Source: Treponemataceae bacterium
GTDB taxonomy: Bacteria > Spirochaetota > Spirochaetia > Treponematales > Rectinemataceae
NCBI GenBank assembly: GCA_963678065.2
Contig: CAXXVZ010000002.1
Span: forward strand, 192,001 to 256,000
DNA length: 64,000 bases
Direction of reading: 5' to 3'
In this document: in pieces, positions 1 to 16,881 of the stretch
How the letters are laid out: every line of letters begins with the position of its first letter
How positions within the stretch are numbered: the stretch's first letter is position 1
The notes under the pieces: generated by a model
What the model was told of the DNA's origin: nothing
What the model saw: only the letters and a program-made list of their open reading frames with translations
Database searches by the model: none
Translations under genes and position numbers: made by a program

Positions 1-707
1 CCGTACACATGGCCGTCGAGGGTGATGTATTTCTGGACCTCAGCCAGTTTTCCCATGAGGATCGTCGGGATCGGGTTTTCCTGTCCGTCGACGACCTTGG
101 TCTGCAGTGCGGTGTAGGTCTCGGTCCAGGCGATGGGGGTCGGGCTGGCGCCCATGGCTTTGAGCATATTGACGTACAGCGGTGTTTCCTGGACGCGGAT
201 CTTGAGACCCTTCATGTCGGCGGGCGTCTTTATCGGCCTGACATTGTTCGTGAAGTGACGGAAGCCGACCTCGGCGAAAGCCAGACAGCGCATCCCGGTC
301 TCTTTGAGGAACTGAGCCCTGAGTTTATCGCCGAAGGGACCATCCATGACCTGCCATGCGACTTCGCCCGAGGGGAAGAGGTAGGGAATATCGGTCACCA
401 TCGCCGAGGGAAAGAAGTTGGAAATGACGCCCGAGGAGATGCCGGCTTCCACAGTGCCGGCCTTGACGCCTTCGACATACTCGCGCTCTGCGCCGAGGGA
501 TCCACCGCCATAGACCTTCACGTTGATCTGGCCGCCGCTTCTCGCGTTGACCAAACTCGCGAAAGCGAGAGCCTGCGCGTGTTTGCGCGATACCGTGGCA
601 TCGGTCGAATCGGCGTGCGCAAGCTTCAGTTCGAACACCTTTGTCTGGGCGAAGACCGCAGTCACTGCCAGGGAAACCATGAGTACGCAGATTAAGAATC
701 TTTTCAT
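1..707 (-). CDS. dctP: TRAP transporter substrate-binding protein DctP (3' end runs off window)
   Basis: Hand translation from ATG 707 (or GTG 710), AGGAGG at 715-720: MKRFLICVLMVSLAVTAVFAQ signal peptide, then LGAEREYVEG, GFRHFTN, DMKGLKIRV, ETYTALQTKVVDGQENP motifs. Absent from the ORF track because it is open to the window edge. Confidence 0.92.
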   Translation of the reverse strand, partial: MKRFLICVLMVSLAVTAVFAQTKVFELKLAHADSTDATVSRKHAQALAFASLVNARSGGQINVKVYGGGSLGAEREYVEGVKAGTVEAGISSGVISNFFPSAMVTDIPYLFPSGEVAWQVMDGPFGDKLRAQFLKETGMRCLAFAEVGFRHFTNNVRPIKTPADMKGLKIRVQETPLYVNMLKAMGASPTPIAWTETYTALQTKVVDGQENPIPTILMGKLAEVQKYITLDGHVY

Positions 708-760
708 CACTCCACCTCCTGATAAAATTGGGATCGGCGGCACTGCGCCGATATCAAAAA

Positions 761-1726
761 TCAACTGGGCCAGGCGATTGTATACAGATGCTTCCCGCCG
801 TTCGTCGGACCGAGAAGGAGGGCTTTCAGCTCTTCCTCGTTCCGCTGCGACATCAGCTTGCTGTCGGGGAGCTGCCCCACGGGGAATTTGGCAAGAATGT
901 CATCGTGGAGCTTGACGAGGTAGTTGAGCACGTTCTCGATCGCCTTGTAGGCCTTGGTCGGCTCGGCGAGCGTGGCCTTCCCGAGAACGCCTTCGGGGAA
1001 GGTGACGCACTCGATGCCAGTCCCTCCGATGATGCAATGACCAGGGATGGGATTCCCGTAGATGTCCCCGCCCTTGTCCACGTGGCCGGGAGGAAGGAAG
1101 CCGCCCAGCTTCGTGTCCTCTGCGTGTTCGAGCTGGCACATCTCGGGGAAGAGGGCCATCGAGATCGAGGTCTCTGCCTCGTCGGCGTGCTGGAAGGGCG
1201 TCTCGAATGGGCCGCCGTGAGCCTTGTCCTTCAGGTCAGTTCCCATGACACGCGGAAGATCGACGAAAATGACGACTGCGGGAACCTGATACTTTTTCCC
1301 CCATTCCTGGATCGCCGAGGGGAGGGCGTATTCCTGCCCGTGCATGCTGAGGAATATCTGCTTCCTGAATCCCGTGTTCCAGAATCCGGAGATCATCGAC
1401 CTGATGTGGTCGCAGAAAACGCTGTCGGGGAGCGGAACGGTCCCTGGCTGGCCGATGTGGTGGAAGGGATGAGATCCGTACCACATGGGCTCGGCGACCG
1501 TGCAACCGGTCGCTTGAGCCACCATCTCGGCTATCCTCGTGACGATGAAGGTATCCTCGCCGTAAGGGCCGGCCTTGCCGTGGTTCTCCGTGGATCCGAT
1601 GGGGATGAGGATGACATCATCTTTCTTGAGCCTCTCCTCCGCATCGTATTTCGTCATTGTCTGGAAGTAAATCTTGGAGGGCCTGTCCATGTGTCCCTCG
1701 CGTACCGGCAAATTCCAATTAGGCAT
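761..1726 (-). CDS. iolN: Creatininase-family hydrolase, IolN-like (3-dehydro-scyllo-inosose hydrolase subfamily)
   Basis: GSTENHG...GEDT, HGQE and HADEAETS metal motifs; IYFQTMT, GFWNTGFRKQI, GFLPxGHxDK and PEGVxGKATLA segments recall Thermotoga IolN. ATG 1726 with GAGGAG RBS. Confidence 0.8.
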   Translation of the reverse strand: MPNWNLPVREGHMDRPSKIYFQTMTKYDAEERLKKDDVILIPIGSTENHGKAGPYGEDTFIVTRIAEMVAQATGCTVAEPMWYGSHPFHHIGQPGTVPLPDSVFCDHIRSMISGFWNTGFRKQIFLSMHGQEYALPSAIQEWGKKYQVPAVVIFVDLPRVMGTDLKDKAHGGPFETPFQHADEAETSISMALFPEMCQLEHAEDTKLGGFLPPGHVDKGGDIYGNPIPGHCIIGGTGIECVTFPEGVLGKATLAEPTKAYKAIENVLNYLVKLHDDILAKFPVGQLPDSKLMSQRNEEELKALLLGPTNGGKHLYTIAWPS

Positions 1727-1755
1727 ACTCTGTTCTCCTCTCGCGAATAGTAGGG

Positions 1756-2115
1756 CTAGATCCGATGGCTCTTGAGCTGGGGCGCGTAAACCCACACGAA
1801 CTTGAGCTTCGTCGTCCCCGTGTTGACGATCTTGTGGGTGGCTCCAGGCGGGTTGTAGACGCAGATTCCGGGCTTGAGGTCGATCTCCTCGTCAGCCGTG
1901 ATGAATTTCCCCGTTCCTTCCAGGAAGAGCATCACTTCCTCTTCGGTATCATGCTTGTGCTCGGGGACCATGGAACCCGGCTCCGTCTCGTTCACCCCGA
2001 GGGCGAGATTCTGCGAGCCCACGGTCTTCTCCGAAATGAGGATCCACGAGGCCCTTGGCGGAGTTTTCCGCTCGGGCTCAACCTTGTTGATGTCGACTAC
2101 CTTCAATCCTGACAT
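1756..2115 (-). CDS. Cupin-domain protein (possible isomerase)
   Basis: PEHKH..EEE and P.GATH cupin metal motifs; 119 aa. Confidence 0.85.
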   Translation of the reverse strand: MSGLKVVDINKVEPERKTPPRASWILISEKTVGSQNLALGVNETEPGSMVPEHKHDTEEEVMLFLEGTGKFITADEEIDLKPGICVYNPPGATHKIVNTGTTKLKFVWVYAPQLKSHRI

Positions 2116-2134
2116 GATTCTCCCTCTCCTTGTC

Positions 2135-2881
2135 TCAGCCGATGAAAATGCCGCCGTTCACGTCGAGGGTAACCCCGGTGACCCAGTCGGACCTCGCCGA
2201 TGCCAGATAGATGACCGCGTCCGCCACGTCCTCCGGATACCCGTCCTTCGATACGGCCCTGCCGGCGTTCCACGACGCGAAAACTTCCTTTGTATACTGC
2301 CTCGTCTGCTCGGTGAGCATGGGGCCCGGGCAGATGGTGTTCACATAGATGTTGAAGGCTCCGAGCTCCTTGGCGAGGCACTTGGAAACACCGATGAGGC
2401 CAGCCTTGGAAGCCGCGTAGTTGACGCCGACGCCCGGCCTGCCCGTCCTGCCGCCGAGGGAGGCGATATTGACGATCTTCCCGGAGCCCTGTTTCTTCAT
2501 GACCGGCGCGACGGCCTTGCAGCAGAGGAAGGGGCCGGTGAGGTTCACCTTGATGACGAGATCCCAGAGTTCGAGGCTCATCTCATCGAGGTTCTTGTGC
2601 CTGGAGATGCCCGCGTTGTTGACGAGGACGTCGATCCGCCCGAACTTTTCGGTCGTCCGGGCGACAGCCTCGACAGCCTCGGCCTCATCGGTCACGTTCA
2701 CTTTGACCGCGATTGTCCTCTCTCCCGCGGGATCGAGCTCGGAGGCGACCTTCCGCGCCGCCTCGAAGTTCATGTCCCAGAGGGCCACAAGAGCCCCTTC
2801 CGCGAACAGTTTCCGCGCGATCACTTCGCCGATTCCGTTGCCCGCGCCTGTCACTACGGCGACTCTATTTTCCAGTTCCAT
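2135..2881 (-). CDS. SDR-family NAD(P)-dependent oxidoreductase
   Basis: TGAGNGIG, NNAG, YAASK; start at MELENR. Confidence 0.92.
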   Translation of the reverse strand: MELENRVAVVTGAGNGIGEVIARKLFAEGALVALWDMNFEAARKVASELDPAGERTIAVKVNVTDEAEAVEAVARTTEKFGRIDVLVNNAGISRHKNLDEMSLELWDLVIKVNLTGPFLCCKAVAPVMKKQGSGKIVNIASLGGRTGRPGVGVNYAASKAGLIGVSKCLAKELGAFNIYVNTICPGPMLTEQTRQYTKEVFASWNAGRAVSKDGYPEDVADAVIYLASARSDWVTGVTLDVNGGIFIG

Positions 2882-2898
2882 TGTTTTGTCCCTCTCCA

Positions 2899-4632
2899 TC
2901 AAAGCTGGCCGGCGGGAACGTAATCGTCCCACATGGCATGCATTTCGCTCATCGGCACATCGAAAACAGCGTTGTTCGGAGGCAGGGGTTCATCCTGCAT
3001 GAATTCGGGCATGGGATGGAATTCCTCGGAGGCGCCGGATCTCCTGTTGAACTCCCGTTCGGTCATGATCGTGTCGTAGCCGAGGCGGACAACATCCTCC
3101 ACGCTCATCTCCCATCCATACCTGCCCTTGAGCAGGTTCGCGAACATCTCCGGCCTCTTGAGGAAGGGAGGCCGTACGAAGAGGCAGAGGCCGAGGGTAT
3201 CCAGGAGGGCTGCCCTGATCTGCAGCTTCCTCGAGACCGCAACCTGCCCTTCGGCCTTCAGAGGATCGAGGGTTTTCAGGGTCTCGAAGGCGTTTCCCGC
3301 CGTGTGGTCTGCGCCCATCGGCGAGGTGACATAGGTGACGCCGTTGCCCTTGACTCCCCTCGGGTCGTAGCCCGGCATGGCCTGGCCCTTGATGACCGGC
3401 ACGCGCCTGATTCCGAAAACCCTTCCGGTAATCTGGGCGCCGTTGCCGAGAACCCGGCCGAGGCAGGTCCCCTGGCCGATCTGGCGGATGAGATCCTTAG
3501 CGCCTTCGGCATCGCCGAACCGGATGATGCCGGCCTCCATGGCCACGCCGATGGCGGCCCCGGTCTCTATCCCGTCAACGCCGACCTGATTGCAGAGATT
3601 GTTCAGTTCCGCGATGTCGTCGAGGCTGCCGATCCCGCAGTTGGAGCCCAAAAGAGAGATATTTTCATATTGTATGGAGGCGACGATCTTTTTGCCGCTC
3701 CTGTCCGGAAAGATGTTGCTGCACTTGATCACACAGCCGGCGACGCAGGGCTTTCCCGCCCCACCCTCCCCGCCGCGCGCAAGTATTTCTTCCCGGACGC
3801 GTTCTCCCGCTATCTCGTCTGCGCGCTCGAAGCTGCCCGAGCTGAAATTCCTGGTAGGAAGGAGTCCCGACGCGTTGGCCAGGGCAAGAATCGCCGGAGT
3901 CCCAAAGAGATTCCGGTTCTCGGTCTTGGGATCCTTAAGGAGGGCTTCCGTCATCCACTTCGACGTGGCCGCGAGGAGTTCCGGATCGAAGATATCCGGC
4001 TTGAAGGTCGAACCTGCGTCGTCGATGACTATCGCCTTCAGCCCCTTCGACCCCATGAGAGCGCCCAGTCCGCCGCGGGCGGCGTAACGTATCTGCACAT
4101 CCTCGTTGTCCGGGGAAGCGATCCCCGCTCCGTACATGAGCATCTCACCGGCGGGACCGATGCAGAAGATGCCGACCTTTTCCCCGAATCGCTCGCGGAG
4201 AGCGGCGACCGCCTCTGCAACTTGCAGACCGCGCAATTCGGGTGCAGGTTCCATCCGGGATCCCTTCGCCGCGACGACGAGGACGTCCAGAGAGGAAGTG
4301 GCGGGCGTATCTTCTATTACGAGGGCCCTGATGCCGAGCTTCGCCAATCTCTTGCCGGCGAGGCCGCCGACATTGCTCTCCTTGACGCCCCCCGTCAGCG
4401 GGCTCTTTCCTCCTATGGACAGCTGCCCCGCCGTCGTCACGGAGGTATCCGCGAGGAGGCCCGAGGCGAAAATGAGCTTGTTCCGCCGGCCCACCGGCTC
4501 GCAGGTCGGAGGCACTTCCCGCAGGAGGAAATTTGCGAGGAGAGATCTTCCTCCCCATCTCATTTCCTCTTCTGTCGCCTTCTGCTCCAGGATGCTCCTG
4601 TCGCGGACATTCACGCGAAGAATGGTGTTCAT
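2899..4632 (-). CDS. Aldehyde:ferredoxin oxidoreductase family (W/Mo-pterin, 4Fe-4S)
   Basis: KSPLTGG.KESN.GG, AARGGLGA.MGSK.LKA, CVAGCVIKC cluster, YDPR, GADHT, distal LGLC. Confidence 0.92.
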   Translation of the reverse strand: MNTILRVNVRDRSILEQKATEEEMRWGGRSLLANFLLREVPPTCEPVGRRNKLIFASGLLADTSVTTAGQLSIGGKSPLTGGVKESNVGGLAGKRLAKLGIRALVIEDTPATSSLDVLVVAAKGSRMEPAPELRGLQVAEAVAALRERFGEKVGIFCIGPAGEMLMYGAGIASPDNEDVQIRYAARGGLGALMGSKGLKAIVIDDAGSTFKPDIFDPELLAATSKWMTEALLKDPKTENRNLFGTPAILALANASGLLPTRNFSSGSFERADEIAGERVREEILARGGEGGAGKPCVAGCVIKCSNIFPDRSGKKIVASIQYENISLLGSNCGIGSLDDIAELNNLCNQVGVDGIETGAAIGVAMEAGIIRFGDAEGAKDLIRQIGQGTCLGRVLGNGAQITGRVFGIRRVPVIKGQAMPGYDPRGVKGNGVTYVTSPMGADHTAGNAFETLKTLDPLKAEGQVAVSRKLQIRAALLDTLGLCLFVRPPFLKRPEMFANLLKGRYGWEMSVEDVVRLGYDTIMTEREFNRRSGASEEFHPMPEFMQDEPLPPNNAVFDVPMSEMHAMWDDYVPAGQL

Positions 4633-4633
4633 G

Positions 4634-5698
4634 CTAGTGATCCTTCTCCTCGGTGGCTGATATCCTTCGATCGCTCCCCATCACGGCGAGGATCCCGTTT
4701 ATGGCATCCACGACCGTCGCGGGAACATCTATCCCCAATCGTCGGCTCTCCTCTTCCTTCTTCAGCTCCAATTCGCCGGGGAGGAGAATCTCGGTGACCC
4801 CGGGCTGTTTCTTCAGCGCCTTGATTTCCGTGACGTACTCGTCCATCGTCTGCGCGAAAGCCTCAGGATCGACGAAGCGGCCGATGTCGGCGGCAATGAA
4901 ACAGGCCCCGACGCCCGTCGCTCCCTCGAGTTCGTGGAAACTTCTCAGCCTGCGCCCGTAGGCCGAACCGGAGATCACGCCGGAGAGGACGTCGATCATC
5001 AGCGCGAGTCCCGAGCCCTTCGGTCCGCCGAGGGGCAAGAGGGAGCCCTTCAGCGCGCGCTTCGCGTCCGTGGTGGATTCACCGTTCTCGTCGAGGGCCC
5101 ATCCGGCGGGAATACTCTCCCCGGCGAGCGAGGCCAGGCGGATCTTGCCCCTCGCAACGACGCTTGAGGACATGTCGAGGATGAGCGACTTCCCCTCGCC
5201 CGACGGAACCGCGATGGAAATGGGATTGGTTCCGAAGAAAGGCTCGCCGCTGCCGTAGGGAGCCACTGAAGGGTTCCCATTTGTCGTTATTATGGAAACG
5301 ACTCGATCCTGCGCCGCCGCAGCCGAGGAAAAGTAACCGAGAGCGCCTACATTGTTGGTGTTCCGGAGAACGACCATGCCGAGGCCGTGACGTTTCGCCT
5401 TCTCGACACAGAGACGGAGGGCTCGGAAGGCGGCAACCTGCCCGAGTCCGTTGTTTCCGTCGAGGATGGCGGTGGTATCGTCGTCCTTGATTGTCTCGAC
5501 GTGGGTTGGAAAGCTGAGCATCCCGACCGAAACCCTTTGGGATACCATGCGGAGCAGATTGATTCCGTGAGTATTGACCCCGCGCATATCCGCGCTGACG
5601 AGAGCGGCGGCGGCGATCCGGGCGTTCTCTTCATTTTCACCGAGACGGATGAGGATCTCCTCGGCAGTCTCGCGCAGCTTGGTTTCCGGTATCCTCAT
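4634..5698 (-). CDS. Ldh2 family (malate/L-lactate/ureidoglycolate dehydrogenase-like) oxidoreductase
   Basis: AD.RG..THG, GTNPI, LDMSSS..ARGK, GG.KGSGL, LPGE motifs. Confidence 0.92.
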   Translation of the reverse strand: MRIPETKLRETAEEILIRLGENEENARIAAAALVSADMRGVNTHGINLLRMVSQRVSVGMLSFPTHVETIKDDDTTAILDGNNGLGQVAAFRALRLCVEKAKRHGLGMVVLRNTNNVGALGYFSSAAAAQDRVVSIITTNGNPSVAPYGSGEPFFGTNPISIAVPSGEGKSLILDMSSSVVARGKIRLASLAGESIPAGWALDENGESTTDAKRALKGSLLPLGGPKGSGLALMIDVLSGVISGSAYGRRLRSFHELEGATGVGACFIAADIGRFVDPEAFAQTMDEYVTEIKALKKQPGVTEILLPGELELKKEEESRRLGIDVPATVVDAINGILAVMGSDRRISATEEKDH

Positions 5699-5705
5699 AT
5701 ACAGT

Positions 5706-6377
5706 TCACTCCTCGACCAGTCCAAGGGATTCGAATACTTTCTCGAGGCTGTTGAGCTCGACGCTCGAGGTCCCGCCCTTCAGGAGCTTCGCCTTCGACT
5801 CCTCGAACTCCACCCTCTTCAGGGATTTCTCGAGCACCGACTCGCATTCTTCCAGTCTGACGACGACCATTCCGTCGTCGTCGCCGAGGATCAAGTCGCC
5901 TGGGAAAATTGTCACCTGGCCGAAGTTCAGCGGATAGTTGATGAGACCGAGAACTCCCTTGGCTGTTCCCCGGATGCAGAAGCCCCGGCAGAAGATGGGG
6001 AAGCCCATCCTCTCGATCTCGGCAGAATCTCGGATGCAGCCATCGATCGCGAGGCCGGCCAAGCCCCGGGCGACCGCGGCTGTCGCCATCAAACCGCCCC
6101 AATAGCCATAATCGTAAGCCCCACCGACGCTGGCGACGAGGACAACGCCCTCGGGCGATCGCTGGAGTGCCTTGTGCAACATCAGGTTGTCCCCCGGGGC
6201 GCACTGAACCGTGTACGCGGGACCGCATATACGGGTCCCCTTAGCGGCCGGCCTGATGGCGTTCTCGATGAAGCCCTTCCTGCCCGAGGCCTCATACACG
6301 GTTGCAACGTCCAGAGCCTTGAATGCTTCGATAATCGAGGCCGCAGGCTTCCGGATCTCCTTCCTCACATGTGTCAT
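5706..6377 (-). CDS. RraA-family HMG/CHA aldolase, LigK/GalC-type (4-carboxy-4-hydroxy-2-oxoadipate aldolase-like)
   Basis: ATVYEA.GR.G, PGDN.M.H, WGGLM, DGCIRD, GDDDG.VVV; carries the N-terminal extension typical of the LigK clade. Confidence 0.85.
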   Translation of the reverse strand: MTHVRKEIRKPAASIIEAFKALDVATVYEASGRKGFIENAIRPAAKGTRICGPAYTVQCAPGDNLMLHKALQRSPEGVVLVASVGGAYDYGYWGGLMATAAVARGLAGLAIDGCIRDSAEIERMGFPIFCRGFCIRGTAKGVLGLINYPLNFGQVTIFPGDLILGDDDGMVVVRLEECESVLEKSLKRVEFEESKAKLLKGGTSSVELNSLEKVFESLGLVEE

Positions 6378-7060
6378 AGTACCGTCCTATTTCTGATAGT
6401 CAGTTGATTGATATTGACTAGCGAAAGATGCAGATGCTCTCGCATCGCCTTCTCTGCCGCGTCAGGATCCCCGTCTACGATGGCCTGAAGGATCTTCTTG
6501 TGCTCGTCCACGGTCTCGTAAAGGCGCTTCAGCTCGAAGCGTTTGATGAAGAACACCCGGATCCGGACGATGTGCGCCAGGGTAGTCCGATAGTACTCGG
6601 TCAGGAAACTGTTGCCCGATGCCTCCACGATCGCGGTATGTATCTGGTATCCCGACAGCAATGAGTGGCGCAGCTCTACCTCATCGTGGATTTTGAAGGA
6701 ATCATGGTTCTCAAGGATCTCCGCAAACTGCACGTGCGATGGAAAGGACGCCGCGATGCGCGCGGCGGCGCACTCGAGGATTTCGCGCACTTCAAAAATC
6801 TCGTGGATCAAATCGATACCGATCGGCGCCACAAAACAGCCCTTGTTCGGCACGACGACGATGAGGCGATTGTGCTCCAGCTGTTGCAGGGCTTCCCTCA
6901 CGGGAGTTTTGCTGACACCGAGATCCTTGCAGATACTCTGTTCGTTCAGGTACTCCTGCGGCTTCAATTCATTCTGAACAATTTTGTTCTTCAGGATCTC
7001 ATATACTCGTCTCTTTTTGTTGATCTCAGAACCGATCTCGACGATTGTTTCTACCGGCAT
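6374..7060 (-). CDS. GntR-family transcriptional regulator (FCD domain)
   Basis: GVSKTPVREAL HTH; EH..I..AI...D...A...MREH FCD; AAGGAG RBS upstream of ATG 7060. Confidence 0.93.
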   Translation of the reverse strand: MPVETIVEIGSEINKKRRVYEILKNKIVQNELKPQEYLNEQSICKDLGVSKTPVREALQQLEHNRLIVVVPNKGCFVAPIGIDLIHEIFEVREILECAAARIAASFPSHVQFAEILENHDSFKIHDEVELRHSLLSGYQIHTAIVEASGNSFLTEYYRTTLAHIVRIRVFFIKRFELKRLYETVDEHKKILQAIVDGDPDAAEKAMREHLHLSLVNINQLTIRNRTVL

Positions 7061-7079
7061 ATGTGGCCTTCTCCTTAAA

Positions 7080-7151
7080 TAGCGATCAGACATCGCTAAG
7101 CTATCGCCGATATATCGGCGTTATTTTCACCCCGTTCCAAGAATCTGTCAA
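7080..7151 (-). promoter_or_regulatory. Sigma70-type promoter with palindromic operators for the GntR operon
   Basis: Minus-strand TTGACA (7146-7151), 17 nt, GAAAAT; perfect 16-bp palindrome CGCCGATATATCGGCG (7105-7120); TAGCGAT-N5-ATCGCTA (7080-7098). Confidence 0.65.
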
Positions 7152-7409
7152 CTAAAATCTTCACGTTTTCACGAATCTTTAAATGTGCCTCCTTTCAAGC
7201 CGATCCTGGAGAAATTGTCAGAAATTTCTCCAGTGCTACGGTACACAGCGGATATCCGACCGCGATCCGTATTAGATATTAATAATATATGATTGACATA
7301 TTGGGAAGATGTTCCTGTTCTCCCAATAAATCAGCCCTGCCCCATTTGTCAAGGGAAAGTTGAGAGGAGGCCATGGTTGGAGCCTGATATCGCAGCCATG
7401 CTCACGAAT

Positions 7410-7443
7410 GTGAAAAGACCGCGGTTGACCGCGGTCTTTTCAC
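7410..7443. terminator. Intrinsic terminator downstream of the esterase gene
   Basis: Perfect 16-bp inverted repeat GTGAAAAGACCGCGGT-TG-ACCGCGGTCTTTTCAC with T-tracts on both strands. Confidence 0.8.
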
Positions 7444-7489
7444 CCCATCAGGATTATCCTGAGAGATATCGAACGAATCCCTGTCGATA

Positions 7490-9328
7490 TTACTTCACAA
7501 CACTGGGATCGCGCATGTACTCGATTTTTCCACCCACTCTTCGATACTTGCTGAAATGTTCGTCCCATATCATCCAGGATTCATCGGCGATGTTGTTGTG
7601 GGCACGTCCCATAGTGATGGAATAGCGGACTATGGGGACGCCAACCTCGTTGAACCAGAGCTGGTGCTGAAATCTGCCGCTTTTATAGGTATACGGCTTG
7701 TCGATATCGCCATTCGTGAAGCGACGCACCCAGTACGCCATGGTAGCCTTGAGGACGGGGCTCTTGGTGAACCCGCCTGGCCATATGTCGTTCTCGCCCG
7801 TGATGACCCAGATGGGGACCTGGCCCGTAGTGTTGATGTTGGCCGGCCATACGAAGTTGGGCTGGTCGATACCCATGATCGGGCCGGAGGTCGCGCCGAT
7901 GGCGGCGAAGGTTTCGGGCGTCTGCATCGCCACGAGATGGCTCATCATGCAGCCGAGCGACTGTCCTGTGAGGTACACCCTGGTCGGGTCGATATTGTAG
8001 GTGGCCTCGACTTTCTTCACGAGCTCGTTGAGGAACTTGACATCGTCGGGCCGAGTCGGGTCGGCGAGGGCGTTCCACTGCGGCCGAGGCACGCAGTTGG
8101 TGCCACTTGTATACGGGAAGGCACTTGGGAAAGCGAGAATGAAACCGCGGGCATTTGCCACCTTGTACCATTCGCTGTGGTGAGCGACCATGATCTCGCC
8201 CGTCTGCCCGGAGCCGTGATTGACGACTACAAGGGGAACCGGATCCTTGGAATCGCGCAGGGCGGGAGGAACGTATTCCCACCACTCGCGGACATAGCCG
8301 TCCACCTCGAGCTGAACCTTCCTGACACCTTTCTCCACATAATTAAAAGGCGGGATGATAGTGTTCTGGAGGCAGCCTAAACCATAACGGCTGTTCTTGA
8401 GCATATAGTCGGTGTAGATCTTCTCGTTCGCTGCCGGGTCGATGTAGTTGGTCTTCTGTTCCGTCACTTGCACCCTGCCCGCGACTATCGATTCCTCGAT
8501 ATCCTTCGCAAGACTCTCTGCGGACTCCATGTAAACTGTCGTCTTGCCGTTCGTGTAGCCAACCGGATCGCACTTGTCCGCTTTTGCCCAGTAGTCGACC
8601 GTCTTCTGGACACCTGGCGTCATTTCTTCCGTGATGATCCAGACCTGTGTCTTTATCTCGCTATTCATCAGAGCCTTGTTATGCGCGGTCGGCGTCTTGG
8701 CCATGGTCTGCATGTAAGCTTCAGGGATCTCGCTGCCGTCAACCACGACCAGGGCCGAGCAGAGCTTCGGGTTGCTCATGATGTACTGTTGCAGCATCTG
8801 GCCACCGTCGCCGTAGCCGATAAAGCGGAAGTTGAACTGGTTGTTGTTGTAGTACGGCCGGACATCGATGACGCGGGCGAAGGCCTTCGTAATGTAGGCC
8901 ACTTCGTCGGCCGCCATGGTGACGTTCCACTTCTTGTCGACACCTTCGAGAACGAACAGGAACTGGGAATACTTGTCCGCGATTGCCATCCAGCCACTCG
9001 CCTCGAGGAAGGCGACTGCGTCCACGCCCGAGGGCACGGCGACGACGATGTTGTTTTGCCCCTGCTTGGCGCTTGCAGGGATATAGACCTTGAACGACCG
9101 CTTCACGCCGTTGACATCGAGAATGTCGTCGTACAGTCCCTGGTAAACAGGAGCGTAGGCGTCTTTCGGGTTCAGGGTCTTCACCATATTCACGAAATCC
9201 GGAGTGGCCGGGAAGAGCTTCACCGCCGTTTTGGCTGGCGACAAAGACAAATCGCTTGCAGCCGACAGCGGGAGAGCCAACGCCAACCCGACTATCGCCG
9301 CCAGGAAATGAATCAGACCTCTTCTCAT
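7490..9328 (-). CDS. Secreted tandem alpha/beta-hydrolase (PHB-depolymerase/LpqC-like esterase)
   Basis: Signal peptide MRRGLIHFLAAIVGLALALPLSAA; C-terminal domain with NHGSG, DDVKFL, IDPTRVYLTGQSLG and His in GRAHN; AAGGAG RBS before ATG 9328. Confidence 0.85.
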   Translation of the reverse strand: MRRGLIHFLAAIVGLALALPLSAASDLSLSPAKTAVKLFPATPDFVNMVKTLNPKDAYAPVYQGLYDDILDVNGVKRSFKVYIPASAKQGQNNIVVAVPSGVDAVAFLEASGWMAIADKYSQFLFVLEGVDKKWNVTMAADEVAYITKAFARVIDVRPYYNNNQFNFRFIGYGDGGQMLQQYIMSNPKLCSALVVVDGSEIPEAYMQTMAKTPTAHNKALMNSEIKTQVWIITEEMTPGVQKTVDYWAKADKCDPVGYTNGKTTVYMESAESLAKDIEESIVAGRVQVTEQKTNYIDPAANEKIYTDYMLKNSRYGLGCLQNTIIPPFNYVEKGVRKVQLEVDGYVREWWEYVPPALRDSKDPVPLVVVNHGSGQTGEIMVAHHSEWYKVANARGFILAFPSAFPYTSGTNCVPRPQWNALADPTRPDDVKFLNELVKKVEATYNIDPTRVYLTGQSLGCMMSHLVAMQTPETFAAIGATSGPIMGIDQPNFVWPANINTTGQVPIWVITGENDIWPGGFTKSPVLKATMAYWVRRFTNGDIDKPYTYKSGRFQHQLWFNEVGVPIVRYSITMGRAHNNIADESWMIWDEHFSKYRRVGGKIEYMRDPSVVK

Positions 9329-9675
9329 AAAAAACTCCTTAAAAAAAGGATCAAGAATATTGCGTACAGGCAATAATCCACTAATCCACTGCCCGCAGAA
9401 CCTGACTATCCTGGCAGACAAATAATTTCCACGCCGCCAACATACTCGACAATTTGCGGACTTCATTGTGCAACATCAACAAGCAATCTATTTGTTCATT
9501 ACAGCCAACTGTCGTATCCTCCTCCCGAGGCATCTTTGACTTTGACAAAAGAACCAATGACGTCGCAACTTGCCATACAAATCTTGTCAAGAGGGTAAAG
9601 CTCTCACCGTTTATGCTGCCGCAACCCATCAATGTTTTGTGGGCAATTGTGATTGGACCATCGGACGAGATTGTT

Positions 9676-9858
9676 TCCAGTTGCTGCAGGGTCTCCTTCT
9701 TGGGAGTCGTGCTGATACCACGATCAATGCGGAAACTCTGTTAATTAGGTACACGGCGGCTTCAATTCATCCCGGACAATCCTGTTCTCCAAAAACCCGT
9801 ATACCCAACGCTGTCTGGCGATCCCGCAATCGATCTCGACGATTGTTTCTACCGGAAC
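9676..9858 (-). pseudogene. Decayed duplicate of the GntR HTH-coding region
   Basis: Aligns by eye with 6876-7060, including a 25-bp identical block (9831-9855 = 7033-7057). Start ATG is lost and a net 2-nt deletion shifts the offset from 2800 to 2798. Remnants PVETIVEI, ELKP, LQQLE. Confidence 0.85.
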
Positions 9859-9877
9859 GCTAGGCTCACTCCTTGGA

Positions 9878-9949
9878 TAGCAATCGGACATCGCTAAGTT
9901 ATCGCCGATATATCGGTAATATCCTCACATCGTTCTTCAAATCTGTCAA
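9878..9949 (-). promoter_or_regulatory. Second copy of the GntR promoter/operator
   Basis: CCGATATATCGG (9905-9916), TAGCAAT-N5-ATCGCTA (9878-9896) and TTGACA (9944-9949) at the same spacing as 7080-7151. Confidence 0.65.
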
Positions 9950-10312
9950 TAAATATTTTCACTCTTTTTACGAATTTCGACTTTCTCGTCAAAGACTTTC
10001 TCTATCGAATTGGGAGAATCCCATCTTCTTCAAAAGGCCCATTCAGGGGTGTCGAAATCTGCCACCAAAATACTGTCGCGGCAGCGCATCCGTGATATGG
10101 CTCGCACTGGATACAGAAGATCACAATGAGCCAGAAAATGCCCGCAAGAGGATATACCCCCTTATCGCCCTGAGCGGCTCGTCGACGCAGGCGGGCACAG
10201 TCGCTGGCAAATAGTCCTCCCGGGCTTCGCTCTCCCGATCCCGGAGGCCGTTTCCGTCATCCTTGAGCCCGCGAGCTGTACTTTCCCCCTTCCCGCCAGT
10301 ATCCTCTGTTCC

Positions 10313-15999: not shown

Positions 16000-16881
16000 T
16001 CACGCTCCTCCGATCATGAAGCAGCGCATGCCCATGGAAGCGTTCTGGATCGACTCGTGAAAATACTGCACAGGCTCCCCATCCTCCCGGAGGGCAAGCG
16101 CATAGAGCATCGGCAGATAGTGCTCGTTCGTCCGGAAGGCCCGCCGCGAAGCGGCGTTCGGTCCGCCGAATCCGATCAGGGTTTCGGTGTCTGTGGCGTC
16201 GATCTTCTCTTTCACAAGAGCATCGAAGGCGATGGCCCAGGGCAGGGCTTCGGCATTGTCGTCGAAGTCGACCTCGTCGAAGCTGTGGACGATGTTGCCC
16301 GAGCCCACGACAAGGACGCCCTCCTCCCTGAGAGGAGCGAGTCGCTGCGCGAATTCGAAACCCGCTCCGGGAGAAAGTCCTGCGTCGAGGCTCAGCTGGA
16401 GGACCGGGATGTCTTGCGCCGGATACATGTGGTGGAGGACTGACCATGCCCCGTGGTCGATCCCGCGTCCCGGATCAGGAAGAACCGTGGAGCCAGAGCC
16501 GGAGAGTGTTGCCGCGATATGTTCCGCGAGCCGTGGGTCTCCGGGCGCGCTGTAGGAGACCTTGTACAGCTCGGGAGGGAAGCCGGAAAAATCGTAGATC
16601 TGCTTCGGCCGCGGAGAGGAGGTTACGAAGCTGCCGCGCGATTGCCAGTGGGCGGACACGACGAGTATGGACTCGGGCTTCGGCAGCCGCGCCGCCACGG
16701 CCACGAGATCCCGCGTGAAATCGTTGTCCGCGACAATGTTCATGGGAGAACCGTGGGCCGAGAACAGGACAGGCATGCGAGAGCGGCGCGGGCTCGTTCC
16801 GGCATCGATACCGGCATGCGCGCCGACCTTGGCATCGGCGCTGGCGTTGGCGTTGGCGTTCATGTGATGCTCCTCGTTCAT
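16000..16881 (-). CDS. ygiD: 4,5-DOPA dioxygenase extradiol-like (LigB/class III ring-cleavage family)
   Basis: HGSPMN, VSAHW, IYDF.GFP..LY, DHGAW, GSGNIVH, EHYLP; true start may be up to about 34 codons downstream. Confidence 0.9.
   Translation of the reverse strand: MNEEHHMNANANASADAKVGAHAGIDAGTSPRRSRMPVLFSAHGSPMNIVADNDFTRDLVAVAARLPKPESILVVSAHWQSRGSFVTSSPRPKQIYDFSGFPPELYKVSYSAPGDPRLAEHIAATLSGSGSTVLPDPGRGIDHGAWSVLHHMYPAQDIPVLQLSLDAGLSPGAGFEFAQRLAPLREEGVLVVGSGNIVHSFDEVDFDDNAEALPWAIAFDALVKEKIDATDTETLIGFGGPNAASRRAFRTNEHYLPMLYALALREDGEPVQYFHESIQNASMGMRCFMIGGA

Follow-up and report, generated by a model that had tools for sequence, protein, structure and literature searches.

The left end of the DNA stretch analysed here (the window: 64,000 nucleotides, G000:C2:192001-256000, from the five-contig, 5.27-Mb genome of a Treponemataceae bacterium) carries an operon headed by a GntR-type regulator gene, which on balance is likely to encode an oxygen-independent, non-aromatizing breakdown of quinate, and probably of shikimate, to pyruvate and oxaloacetate. 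What is new is the apparent joining of a hydrolytic cyclitol pathway of the IolN type to an aldolase end that would act on 4-carboxy-4-hydroxy-2-oxoadipate (CHA); as far as sequences can tell, this conserved system is well supported. The system is real, it represents a probably undescribed pathway, and its substrate is likely to be quinate or shikimate.

Few soluble plant acids are as abundant as quinate and its chlorogenic acid esters, which reach anoxic soils, sediments, digesters and guts. Aerobic quinate and shikimate use (the qui, qsu and qut systems) proceeds through quinate dehydrogenase, dehydroquinase, dehydroshikimate dehydratase and protocatechuate dioxygenase, and to our knowledge this aromatization, followed by oxygen-dependent ring cleavage, is the sole genetically defined quinate route. 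A non-aromatizing anaerobic fermentation of quinate and shikimate by fermenting bacteria is said to have been described by Brune and Schink in the 1990s, and Ilyobacter insuetus is a specialist on these two acids. The first-pass annotation of this DNA had knowledge of no described pathway with the present gene set, and our own literature search, which left subscription journals mostly outside its scope, likewise found no description of such a gene set or of an anaerobic non-aromatizing quinate or shikimate pathway; the literature that it returned on quinate degradation or catabolism dealt with the aromatizing route or with pathway labels only.

In the route that we propose, a TRAP system would import the acid, and a short-chain dehydrogenase/reductase (SDR) together with an IolM-like zinc dehydrogenase would oxidize C3 and C5 to give 3,5-didehydroquinate, a cyclic 2-hydroxy-1,3-diketone of the kind on which IolN is known to act. 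The IolN-type enzyme would then hydrolyze a ring C-C bond to yield 3-carboxy-3,6-dihydroxy-5-oxohexanoate (HOOC-CH2-C(OH)(COOH)-CH2-CO-CH2OH), whose terminal ketol a small cupin would isomerize to a 2-hydroxy-aldehyde. An aldehyde ferredoxin oxidoreductase (AOR), with ferredoxin as its acceptor, or alternatively an aldehyde dehydrogenase (ALDH), would oxidize this aldehyde, an Ldh2-family enzyme would oxidize the 2-hydroxy acid to CHA, and an aldolase would finally cleave CHA to pyruvate and oxaloacetate. Shikimate could enter through 3-dehydroshikimate by means of the type II dehydroquinase AroQ, and a secreted esterase, placed under a copied operator, may release quinate that is bound in chlorogenate-type esters. 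Both quinate and CHA have seven carbons and a tertiary C(OH)(COOH) centre; as this centre of quinate would become C4 of CHA, an aldolase of the CHA type fits the scheme.

The conservation of the system was assessed in a scan of one genome per species, which returned 88 relatives of IolN; 80 loci were kept, making 81 with the window's own. Genes were counted with hidden Markov models (HMMs), built from the gene clusters and run against six-frame open reading frames (ORFs) of the 80 loci and the own region; the pattern itself had first emerged from a tblastn table and ORF clustering. An RraA/LigK-type aldolase gene is present at 40 of the 81 loci, and all 40 also encode Ldh2, directly after the aldolase, as well as a cupin, IolN and an enzyme for aldehyde oxidation, which is AOR at 35 loci and an NAD-type ALDH at five. 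Each of the five loci that lack AOR (L008, L029, L037, L055 and L066) has an ALDH of family PF00171 (510 bits in L029), and in L029 and L037 this gene occupies the AOR slot; such non-orthologous displacement speaks for the aldehyde-oxidation step that the first-pass annotation had put forward. Gene order and strand, aldolase-Ldh2-AOR/ALDH-cupin-IolN, are identical at 37 of the 40 loci; with the SDR and transporter genes added, the order reads aldolase-Ldh2-AOR-(SDR)-cupin-IolN-TRAP. By their phylum labels, the 40 loci belong to Spirochaetota (15 plus the own locus), Bacillota (12), Chloroflexota (5), Thermodesulfobacteriota (2), 'Myxococcota' (2, titled Deltaproteobacteria), Atribacterota (2) and Planctomycetota (1). 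Two or more dehydrogenases of the SDR, medium-chain (MDR) or GFO type are found at 32 of the 40, the remaining eight being mostly cut by a contig end, and the SDR itself is present at 25. The importers, which speak for an acid as the substrate, are of the TRAP type (DctP at 28, DctM at 27) or, where identified, ABC systems with Liv-type ATPases. A cultured carrier of the full core is Thermovorax subterraneus DSM 21563 (L039). In a sample of 301 genomes from the host's own phylum, the host included, IolN scores above the cut-off in 4, so the cluster is a patchy accessory trait. A lack of co-occurrence in other genomes had been set beforehand as a refuting condition, but the five-gene core is found at all 40 aldolase loci; the reading likewise withstood every other computational test that could have overturned it.

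The quinate/shikimate reading, which had originally been drawn from chemistry alone, is now supported by gene neighbourhoods. Dehydroquinase genes lie beside IolN at 27 of the 81 loci (AroQ at 17, AroD at 10), as against an estimated chance of about 0.5% for meeting a single-copy gene within a 20-kb span of a 4-Mb genome. AroQ (PF01220, 191 bits) occurs at 15 of the 40 aldolase loci, often as a tandem pair beside TIM-barrel and M24 genes, and AroD (PF01487, 267 bits) at 10 of the 11 loci of a Lachnospiraceae variant described below. The host genome's only AroQ (C2:171782-172192, 185 bits) is encoded on the strand of the operon, 20 kb from it and next to an M24 gene; since a biosynthetic AroD-AroE fusion lies elsewhere (C2:83234-84184), with chorismate synthase on another contig, this AroQ is an extra copy, as in known catabolic systems. 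A 3-dehydroshikimate dehydratase is not recognizable, and the intradiol dioxygenase family PF00775 has no match in this genome, which is 99.94% complete.

On the level of individual enzymes, the IolN-type hydrolase scores 512.8 bits on the equivalog model NF041098 (cut-off 245, model positions 1-307), is 85-87% identical to metagenome-assembled proteins of Spirochaetota and Treponemataceae, and is the predicted ring-opening enzyme for a cyclic 2-hydroxy-1,3-diketone. The metal cupin, whose gene stands beside IolN at 59 of the 81 loci, including all 40 with the aldolase, carries three residues (H55, E60 and H94) that are invariant in 38 orthologues, and we predict it to be the ketol-to-aldehyde isomerase. 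Its AlphaFold2 model (predicted local distance difference test score, pLDDT, 91.7) shows a fold like that of small cupins, including archaeal phosphomannose isomerases, which is not diagnostic. A precedent for cupin-catalysed interconversion of aldehyde and ketol right after the opening of a cyclitol ring is Bacillus subtilis IolB, the 5-deoxy-glucuronate isomerase, a cupin-fold aldose-ketose isomerase; IolB, however, is larger and belongs to another cupin family, whereas the 119-residue protein matches the generic Cupin_2 alone.

The SDR, which likely starts at ATG 2899 or 2881, has the TGxxxGIG and YxxxK motifs and, after strand beta-2, an Asp that we take to signify a preference for NAD rather than NADP; it is predicted to catalyse the first ring oxidation, from quinate to 3-dehydroquinate. 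A second dehydrogenase and the transporter genes dctQM had been guessed to lie left of the window, and all of them came to light in the flanking stretch C2:160001-194000. There, the operon goes on along the same strand with dctQ, dctM, a xylose-isomerase-like TIM-barrel gene and a gene for a Zn-dependent MDR, which is similar both to threonine dehydrogenase and to IolM (205 bits, cut-off 450) and, in what we take to be the right reading of its ligands, keeps both the catalytic and the structural zinc site. The TRAP system is thus complete, with adjacent genes on one strand for DctP (269.8 bits), DctQ (108.7 bits) and DctM (418.8 bits). The dctP gene, likely starting at ATG ~707 (MKRFLIC...), continues beyond the window to G000:C2:191679 (full gene C2:191679-192764) and scores 269.8 bits on PF03480 in full length; residue 190 of its ORF is a conserved Arg within a Lys-Ile-Arg-Val stretch, presumably the carboxylate-binding Arg of TRAP binding proteins.

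The AOR falls in the true AOR clade, has its nearest solved structure in the Pyrococcus furiosus enzyme (1AOR, 219 bits) and keeps counterparts of C288, C291, C295, C494, E313, H448 and D489; we take the four cysteines to hold the [4Fe-4S] cluster and E313 and H448 to belong to the active site. Two positions differ, with Asn in place of D338 and Ala in place of K450. This enzyme of the tungsten/molybdopterin type is predicted to oxidize the ring-opened aldehyde to the acid; a role as a BamB-like ring reductase was rejected, the match to BamB reaching 55 bits as against 219 bits for AOR. The Ldh2 protein, with its likely start at ATG 5698, is closest in structure to type-2 malate dehydrogenase (1V9N, 228 bits) and sulfolactate dehydrogenase (2X06, 213 bits), enzymes that act on 2-hydroxy acids bearing a second anionic group, and we predict that it oxidizes the 2-hydroxy triacid to CHA. 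The aldolase is the only member of the RraA family in the genome. It scores 192.6 bits on NF006731 (cut-off 179) and aligns over its full length to the Pseudomonas putida 4-hydroxy-4-methyl-2-oxoglutarate (HMG)/CHA aldolase (3NOJ, 159 bits), whose R123, D124 and E199 correspond to R116, D117 and E192; none of these three varies among 36 orthologues. Wang et al. reportedly described these residues in 2010, with Arg-123 as catalytic and Asp-124 as a metal ligand alongside Glu-199', and Asp-102 as binding the metal-bound water. From this likeness, we predict that the window protein cleaves CHA, with pyruvate and oxaloacetate as products.

Several points weigh against quinate and shikimate as substrates, or against details of the route. 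All of its chemical steps are read from protein families and gene context. NF041098 is an equivalog for 3-dehydro-scyllo-inosose hydrolase, and it scores the IolN proteins of all four context types alike (502-552 bits), so sequence cannot split a quinate-type from an inositol-type IolN; as all four types pass, the name of the model is probably applied too widely. The SDR received no specific family assignment in the NCBIfam scan, and the cluster has no quinate dehydrogenase of the AroE/YdiB type. The aldolase falls short of the stricter LigK model (TIGR02798 ligK_PcmE, 179.6 bits, cut-off 304.5) and has Gly95 at the position of Asp-102, a column that varies within the clade (13 D, 12 G, 3 each of A, N and S, and a further two among 36 sequences) and is useless as a discriminator for that reason. 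AroQ is found at no more than 15 of the 40 aldolase loci and stands 20 kb off in the host. Further to the left, the TIM-barrel protein, with its epimerase-like predicted fold, has no obvious job in the proposed route, and the same island holds a 215-residue ORF without a family (orf215) as well as glyoxalase-like, racemase-like and M24 genes, none of which has an evident role in it. Finally, esterases are not conserved at the other IolN loci, and the IolN tree discussed below was built without the characterized Thermotoga enzyme.

Some of these points would also suit another carboxylated cyclitol, or a sugar-derived acid, that is degraded by the same logic (oxidation, hydrolysis by IolN, aldehyde oxidation and aldol cleavage) while the dehydroquinases serve a side branch. 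This alternative could draw on the failure of the aldolase on the strict LigK model and on the 25 of 40 loci without AroQ, and the solved TRAP binding proteins closest to DctP (4nq8, 4p47 and 4p9k, ~190 bits) are listed without ligand names and so give no hint of a substrate. We nevertheless hold it to be unlikely, given how far the dehydroquinase count of 27 in 81 exceeds the estimated expectation of about 0.5%; moreover, among abundant natural ring acids with a tertiary C(OH)(COOH) centre, no other is known to us whose breakdown would lead to a 4-carboxy-4-hydroxy-2-oxo acid.

A further alternative is a variant of the myo-inositol pathway of Thermotoga maritima (IolG, IolM, IolN and IolO), which was reportedly described by Rodionova et al. 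in 2013. In the Thermotoga pathway, IolN (TM0413) is a creatininase-fold hydrolase that opens the 2-hydroxy-1,3-diketone formed from a twice-oxidized cyclitol, and in the variant two oxidations of a neutral inositol and ring opening by IolN to a keto-aldonic acid would be followed by isomerization, AOR-catalysed oxidation to an aldaric acid, and cleavage. The window protein indeed passes the IolN model with 512.8 bits, and the island adds an IolM-like MDR (205 bits) and an IolO-like epimerase fold, with T. maritima L-ketose 3-epimerase among its matches. The usual inositol company is nevertheless missing: the scores for IolM (205 against 450 bits) and IolO (45 against 300 bits) are far under the cut-offs, and a TRAP importer and a GntR/FCD regulator stand in place of a sugar ABC system. 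Likewise, cupin, AOR, Ldh2 and an RraA-fold aldolase replace the route through uronate isomerase and 2-keto-3-deoxygluconate, no dehydratase is present that could supply the aldolase with a 3-deoxy-2-oxo acid, Ldh2 would be left without an evident role, and the AroQ and AroD genes that accompany the cluster would make no sense for inositol.

The phylogeny of IolN points in the same direction. In a tree rooted on the host's own distant paralogue, all loci of the aldolase and AroD types fall into one clade of 65 (Shimodaira-Hasegawa-like approximate likelihood ratio test, SH-aLRT, 99), which has all the dehydroquinase-linked loci, with the AroD type nested inside (SH-aLRT 99), and excludes those with a LacI regulator and a sugar ABC importer. 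Five Chloroflexota loci (L076 and L078-L081) of the latter kind form a separate clade (SH-aLRT 100) with LacI, a sugar-type ABC importer, a TIM barrel and a 385-residue IolM-like MDR, and their make-up looks like the Thermotoga-like inositol type; they also contain Amidohydro_2, a different cupin, DUF6282 and transaldolase genes. Taken with the TRAP or Liv-type importers and GntR/FCD regulators, this separation (SH-aLRT 100 and 99) makes an inositol pathway in the window quite improbable. A third context outside the clade of 65 comprises L067 and L069-L075 (Atribacterota and Thermoanaerobacterales), whose IolN is about 57% identical and is accompanied by a sigma-54 activator, a nitroreductase-like gene, two CoA-transferase genes, a TctABC tricarboxylate importer, AOR, cupin, Ldh2, malic enzyme and a two-subunit fumarase.

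The AroD-bearing variant (variant B) consists of 11 Lachnospiraceae loci (L026, L028, L031, L032, L034, L035, L038, L040, L041, L053 and L063) from genera that, by their record titles, include Hespellia, Blautia, Faecalicatena and Robinsoniella; cultured carriers are Hespellia stercorisuis DSM 15480, Faecalicatena orotica DSM 1287 and Robinsoniella peoriensis. Its IolN is about 70% identical to that of the window and stands in the order GntR, HMGL-like lyase, IolN, two MDRs, TIM barrel, an enoate-reductase-like flavoprotein with Oxidored_FMN and Pyr_redox_2 domains, AroD, MFS and TRAP. The HMMs found no aldolase, Ldh2, AOR or cupin in the six-frame ORFs of these loci, and variant B may break down quinate or shikimate anaerobically by a route of its own, likewise one that looks undescribed.

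That the host aromatizes its substrate as aerobes do, using dehydroquinase and dehydroshikimate dehydratase to make protocatechuate while the operon handles some later product, seems to us very improbable. The presumed substrates would be the same and the genome has its catabolic-looking extra type II dehydroquinase; AroQ also often adjoins a xylose-isomerase-like TIM-barrel gene, of the fold family that includes dehydratases of the AsbF/QuiC type, and the operon's TIM-barrel protein has a weak AsbF match (24.8 bits). Its AlphaFold2 model (pLDDT 95.5), however, matches ketose 3-epimerases, the 3-keto-glucoside 4-epimerase YcjR and the L-ketose 3-epimerase of T. maritima, and AsbF is not among the listed matches; we have rejected it as a dehydroshikimate dehydratase because of this fold. 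Apart from the missing intradiol dioxygenase, the lone LigB-family gene lies among cell-envelope genes 7 kb off, and an aromatic intermediate would leave IolN, cupin, AOR and Ldh2 without roles. The route proposed for the operon would instead avoid aromatization and rely on oxygen-sensitive, tungsten-type AOR chemistry.

The proposed last step, from CHA to pyruvate and oxaloacetate by an RraA-fold, Mg-dependent aldolase, is shared with the protocatechuate 4,5-cleavage and gallate pathways (LigK/GalC, 3NOJ). Unlike in these, CHA would arise here through hydrolysis of a saturated ring and three dehydrogenations rather than through a dioxygenase acting on an aromatic ring, and in Pfam and NCBIfam scans the operon lacks their ring-cleavage dioxygenase and hydratase genes, with none of the partners LigAB, LigC, LigI, LigJ, GalA, GalB and GalD.

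The least credible alternative, a phloroglucinol-type reductive route in which the SDR would reduce the ring of a phenolic acid and IolN would open the resulting cyclic diketone, is hard to reconcile with an Asp that we assume to be typical of NAD-dependent oxidative SDRs and would give AroQ and AroD no role, and the dehydrogenase TfD and the lyase TAL of the phloroglucinol pathway did not turn up in general family scans, in which their models were not searched by name. The analogous chemistry, according to PMC10470551, is established for phloroglucinol in Clostridium scatologenes, where an SDR reductase is followed by metal-dependent, retro-Claisen ring hydrolysis by DPGC. This pathway resembles ours in being oxygen-free and in opening a cyclic 1,3-diketone by hydrolysis, but there the diketone arises by reduction of an aromatic ring, not by oxidation of a cyclitol, and DPGC belongs to the 'cyclase'/isatin-hydrolase family rather than to the creatininases, a difference that weakens the alternative.

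The features of the window are collected in the table below; gene calls derive from the ORF listing together with Pfam and NCBIfam profile scans. All the genes named in the first-pass annotation were recovered where it had placed them, on the minus strand. From gntR to dctP, neighbouring genes overlap or lie at most about 50 nt apart, the gntR stop overlapping the aldolase start by 4 nt. Metatranscriptome contigs from one run (X19) match dctP, cupin, SDR, AOR and aldolase in short pieces with 85-100% likeness; because these may come from relatives or from DNA, they are not usable as a sign of operon transcription, and we have not counted them as evidence.

Table. Features of the quinate/shikimate candidate operon and its upstream region, in window positions
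Feature	Position	Strand	Basis
dctP, 5' two thirds (TRAP-A)	3..764	-	PF03480 224 bits, TIGR00787 195.5 bits
IolN-type hydrolase, creatininase fold	761..1795	-	NF041098 512.8 bits; PF02633 153.9 bits
Cupin, single domain, 119 aa	1756..2115	-	Cupin_2 59 bits
Classical SDR dehydrogenase	2135..2932	-	adh_short_C2 215 bits
AOR, 577 aa	2899..4632	-	AFOR_N 177.5 bits, AFOR_C 231.9 bits
Ldh2-family 2-hydroxyacid dehydrogenase	4634..5725	-	PF02615 366 bits
RraA/LigK-type class II aldolase	5706..6377	-	NF006731 192.6 bits (cut-off 179)
GntR/FCD regulator, first operon gene	6374..7093	-	GntR 63 bits, FCD 83 bits
Perfect 16-bp palindrome CGCCGATATATCGGCG, candidate GntR operator	7105..7120		between the -10-like hexamer and the gntR start
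Sigma-70-like promoter TTGACA-17-GAAAAT before gntR	7123..7151	-	10/12 matches
Hairpin followed by T-run, directly past the esterase stop	7413..7440	-	read from sequence; not in consensus terminator scan
Secreted two-domain esterase	7490..9328 (ORF 7490-9466)	-	Esterase_PHB 37.9 bits; NF050058 129 bits (cut-off 150)
Copy of gntR promoter, operator and first ~50 codons (truncated gntR')	9740..9975	-	175/234 bases identical to 6940-7175

Upstream of the operon stands the secreted esterase, the remaining member of the gene set. Its likely start is ATG 9328, with AAGGAG upstream and a signal-peptide-like N-terminus after it. The C-terminal domain is an alpha/beta hydrolase of the polyhydroxybutyrate (PHB)-depolymerase/CE1-like kind, while the N-terminal ~350 residues have no family; as the protein resembles a PHB-depolymerase-family esterase, a feruloyl esterase and an acetylxylan esterase only weakly, the family stays generic and points to no particular substrate. 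The hairpin past its stop is likely a terminator that parts the esterase unit from the gntR operon, and together with the separate promoter-like site before gntR it places the esterase outside the operon proper. Scans of the region found 4 promoters where 4.1 were expected and 7 terminators where shuffled sequences gave 8.9, so that only the position of these elements was used.

A regulatory tie between the two units nevertheless comes from the palindrome between the -10-like hexamer and gntR, which has a near copy ahead of the esterase, at 9903-9918. The 12-bp core is present exactly two times in the genome (0.26 expected), both of them in the window, and similar palindromes with 2-3 mismatches stand just upstream of the regulator/aldolase block at four spirochaete loci (L004, L005, L006 and L061). 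The near copy is part of a 235-bp duplicate that is 75% identical to the original and keeps the -35 element TTGACA along with the palindrome, while the gntR' frame ends early. Through this duplicated promoter and operator, the esterase probably belongs to the same regulon as the gntR operon, as far as the DNA sequence indicates; answering to the same regulator would tie it to the operon in this genome. The first-pass annotation had the operon preceded by a secreted esterase that could release quinate, an idea to which the duplicate lends support. The esterase forms a unit of its own, and since esterases are not conserved at the other loci, the link to chlorogenate is a conjecture specific to this genome.

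The operon is embedded in an island that extends over about C2:168-202 kb, a right boundary that we draw because the genes beyond the esterase concern the cell envelope. Among these, at 16000-16881 (minus strand), is the gene for the LigB-family protein (72.5 bits), which lacks a LigA partner and is not linked to the operon; its neighbours are glycosyltransferase, UDP-galactopyranose mutase and LPG-synthase-like genes. To the left, the MDR gene is followed by orf215 and the glyoxalase-fold gene, and farther on the minus strand carries an SLH/metallo-beta-lactamase protein, the racemase-like gene, a 1211-residue esterase, a second TRAP system, two Abhydrolase_3 esterases, an MFS transporter, AroQ and the M24/creatinase-like gene. 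The three esterase genes of this part (C2:174235-183306) are on the same strand as the operon; the two Abhydrolase_3 proteins have BD-FAE matches, and the 1211-residue protein shows weak esterase-family matches at two separate places. Together with the esterase of the window, they suggest that ester-bound substrates are the feedstock. The plus strand carries an ALDH gene (C2:168238-169794) that reaches 908 bits with the HMM of cluster-linked ALDHs from other loci. The second TRAP system (DctP at C2:176399-177409) is an orthologue of the TRAP system at other IolN loci, with identities of 71/87/78% (DctP/DctM/DctQ) to L013 and of 37-52% (DctP) and 52-68% (DctM) to L016, L039, L058 and the variant-B loci.

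Several other parts of the island recur elsewhere. The module of orf215, glyoxalase-fold and Asp/Glu-racemase-like genes (G000:C2:183352-187530; L001:7352-11530) is found whole or in part, at 60-78% identity, in L004, L005, L013, L016, L043 and L061, that is, in spirochaetes, Clostridia and Thermodesulfobacteriota, and a protein with SLH, metallo-beta-lactamase and cadherin-like parts recurs at 67-68% in L006, L007 and L014. The M24/creatinase-like gene (G000:C2:170607-171842) travels with the cluster, often directly beside AroQ, and is also present in L002, L003, L004, L007, L013, L051, L054, L057, L061, L062 and L064. On another contig, an AOR paralogue (598 bits on the cluster HMM) lies in G000:C5:1080001-1098000 (L093), next to an AraC/GyrI-like regulator, a corrinoid-binding protein, a URO-D-like methyltransferase and a family III CoA-transferase. 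Past an ISL3 transposase, this region continues with a lactonase, a DeoR regulator, an AroE-like shikimate-dehydrogenase paralogue, a 656-residue protein without a family, and a glycyl-radical enzyme with its activase; it may encode another pathway for plant-derived compounds.

Put together, the findings outline a broader picture, for which we see about even chances: the cluster would represent the missing genes for the anaerobic fermentation of quinate and shikimate, spread horizontally over some seven phyla; it would take a saturated C7 ring acid to CHA by opening the ring with water and would give a tungsten-type AOR a fixed place in catabolism; in this spirochaete, wired to secreted esterases through the duplicated operator, it would have chlorogenate-type esters as its real feedstock; and the Lachnospiraceae variant would be a second undescribed route. 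If the proposed pathway is true, its gene set would make anaerobic quinate turnover traceable in metagenomes, as that of an oxygen-free route. It would also give a defined physiological substrate to one clade of AORs and one of Ldh2 enzymes, and it would mean that the label '3-dehydro-scyllo-inosose hydrolase' sits on enzymes that probably act on other diketones. Lastly, the variant in gut Lachnospiraceae bears on the metabolism of dietary chlorogenic and quinic acid.

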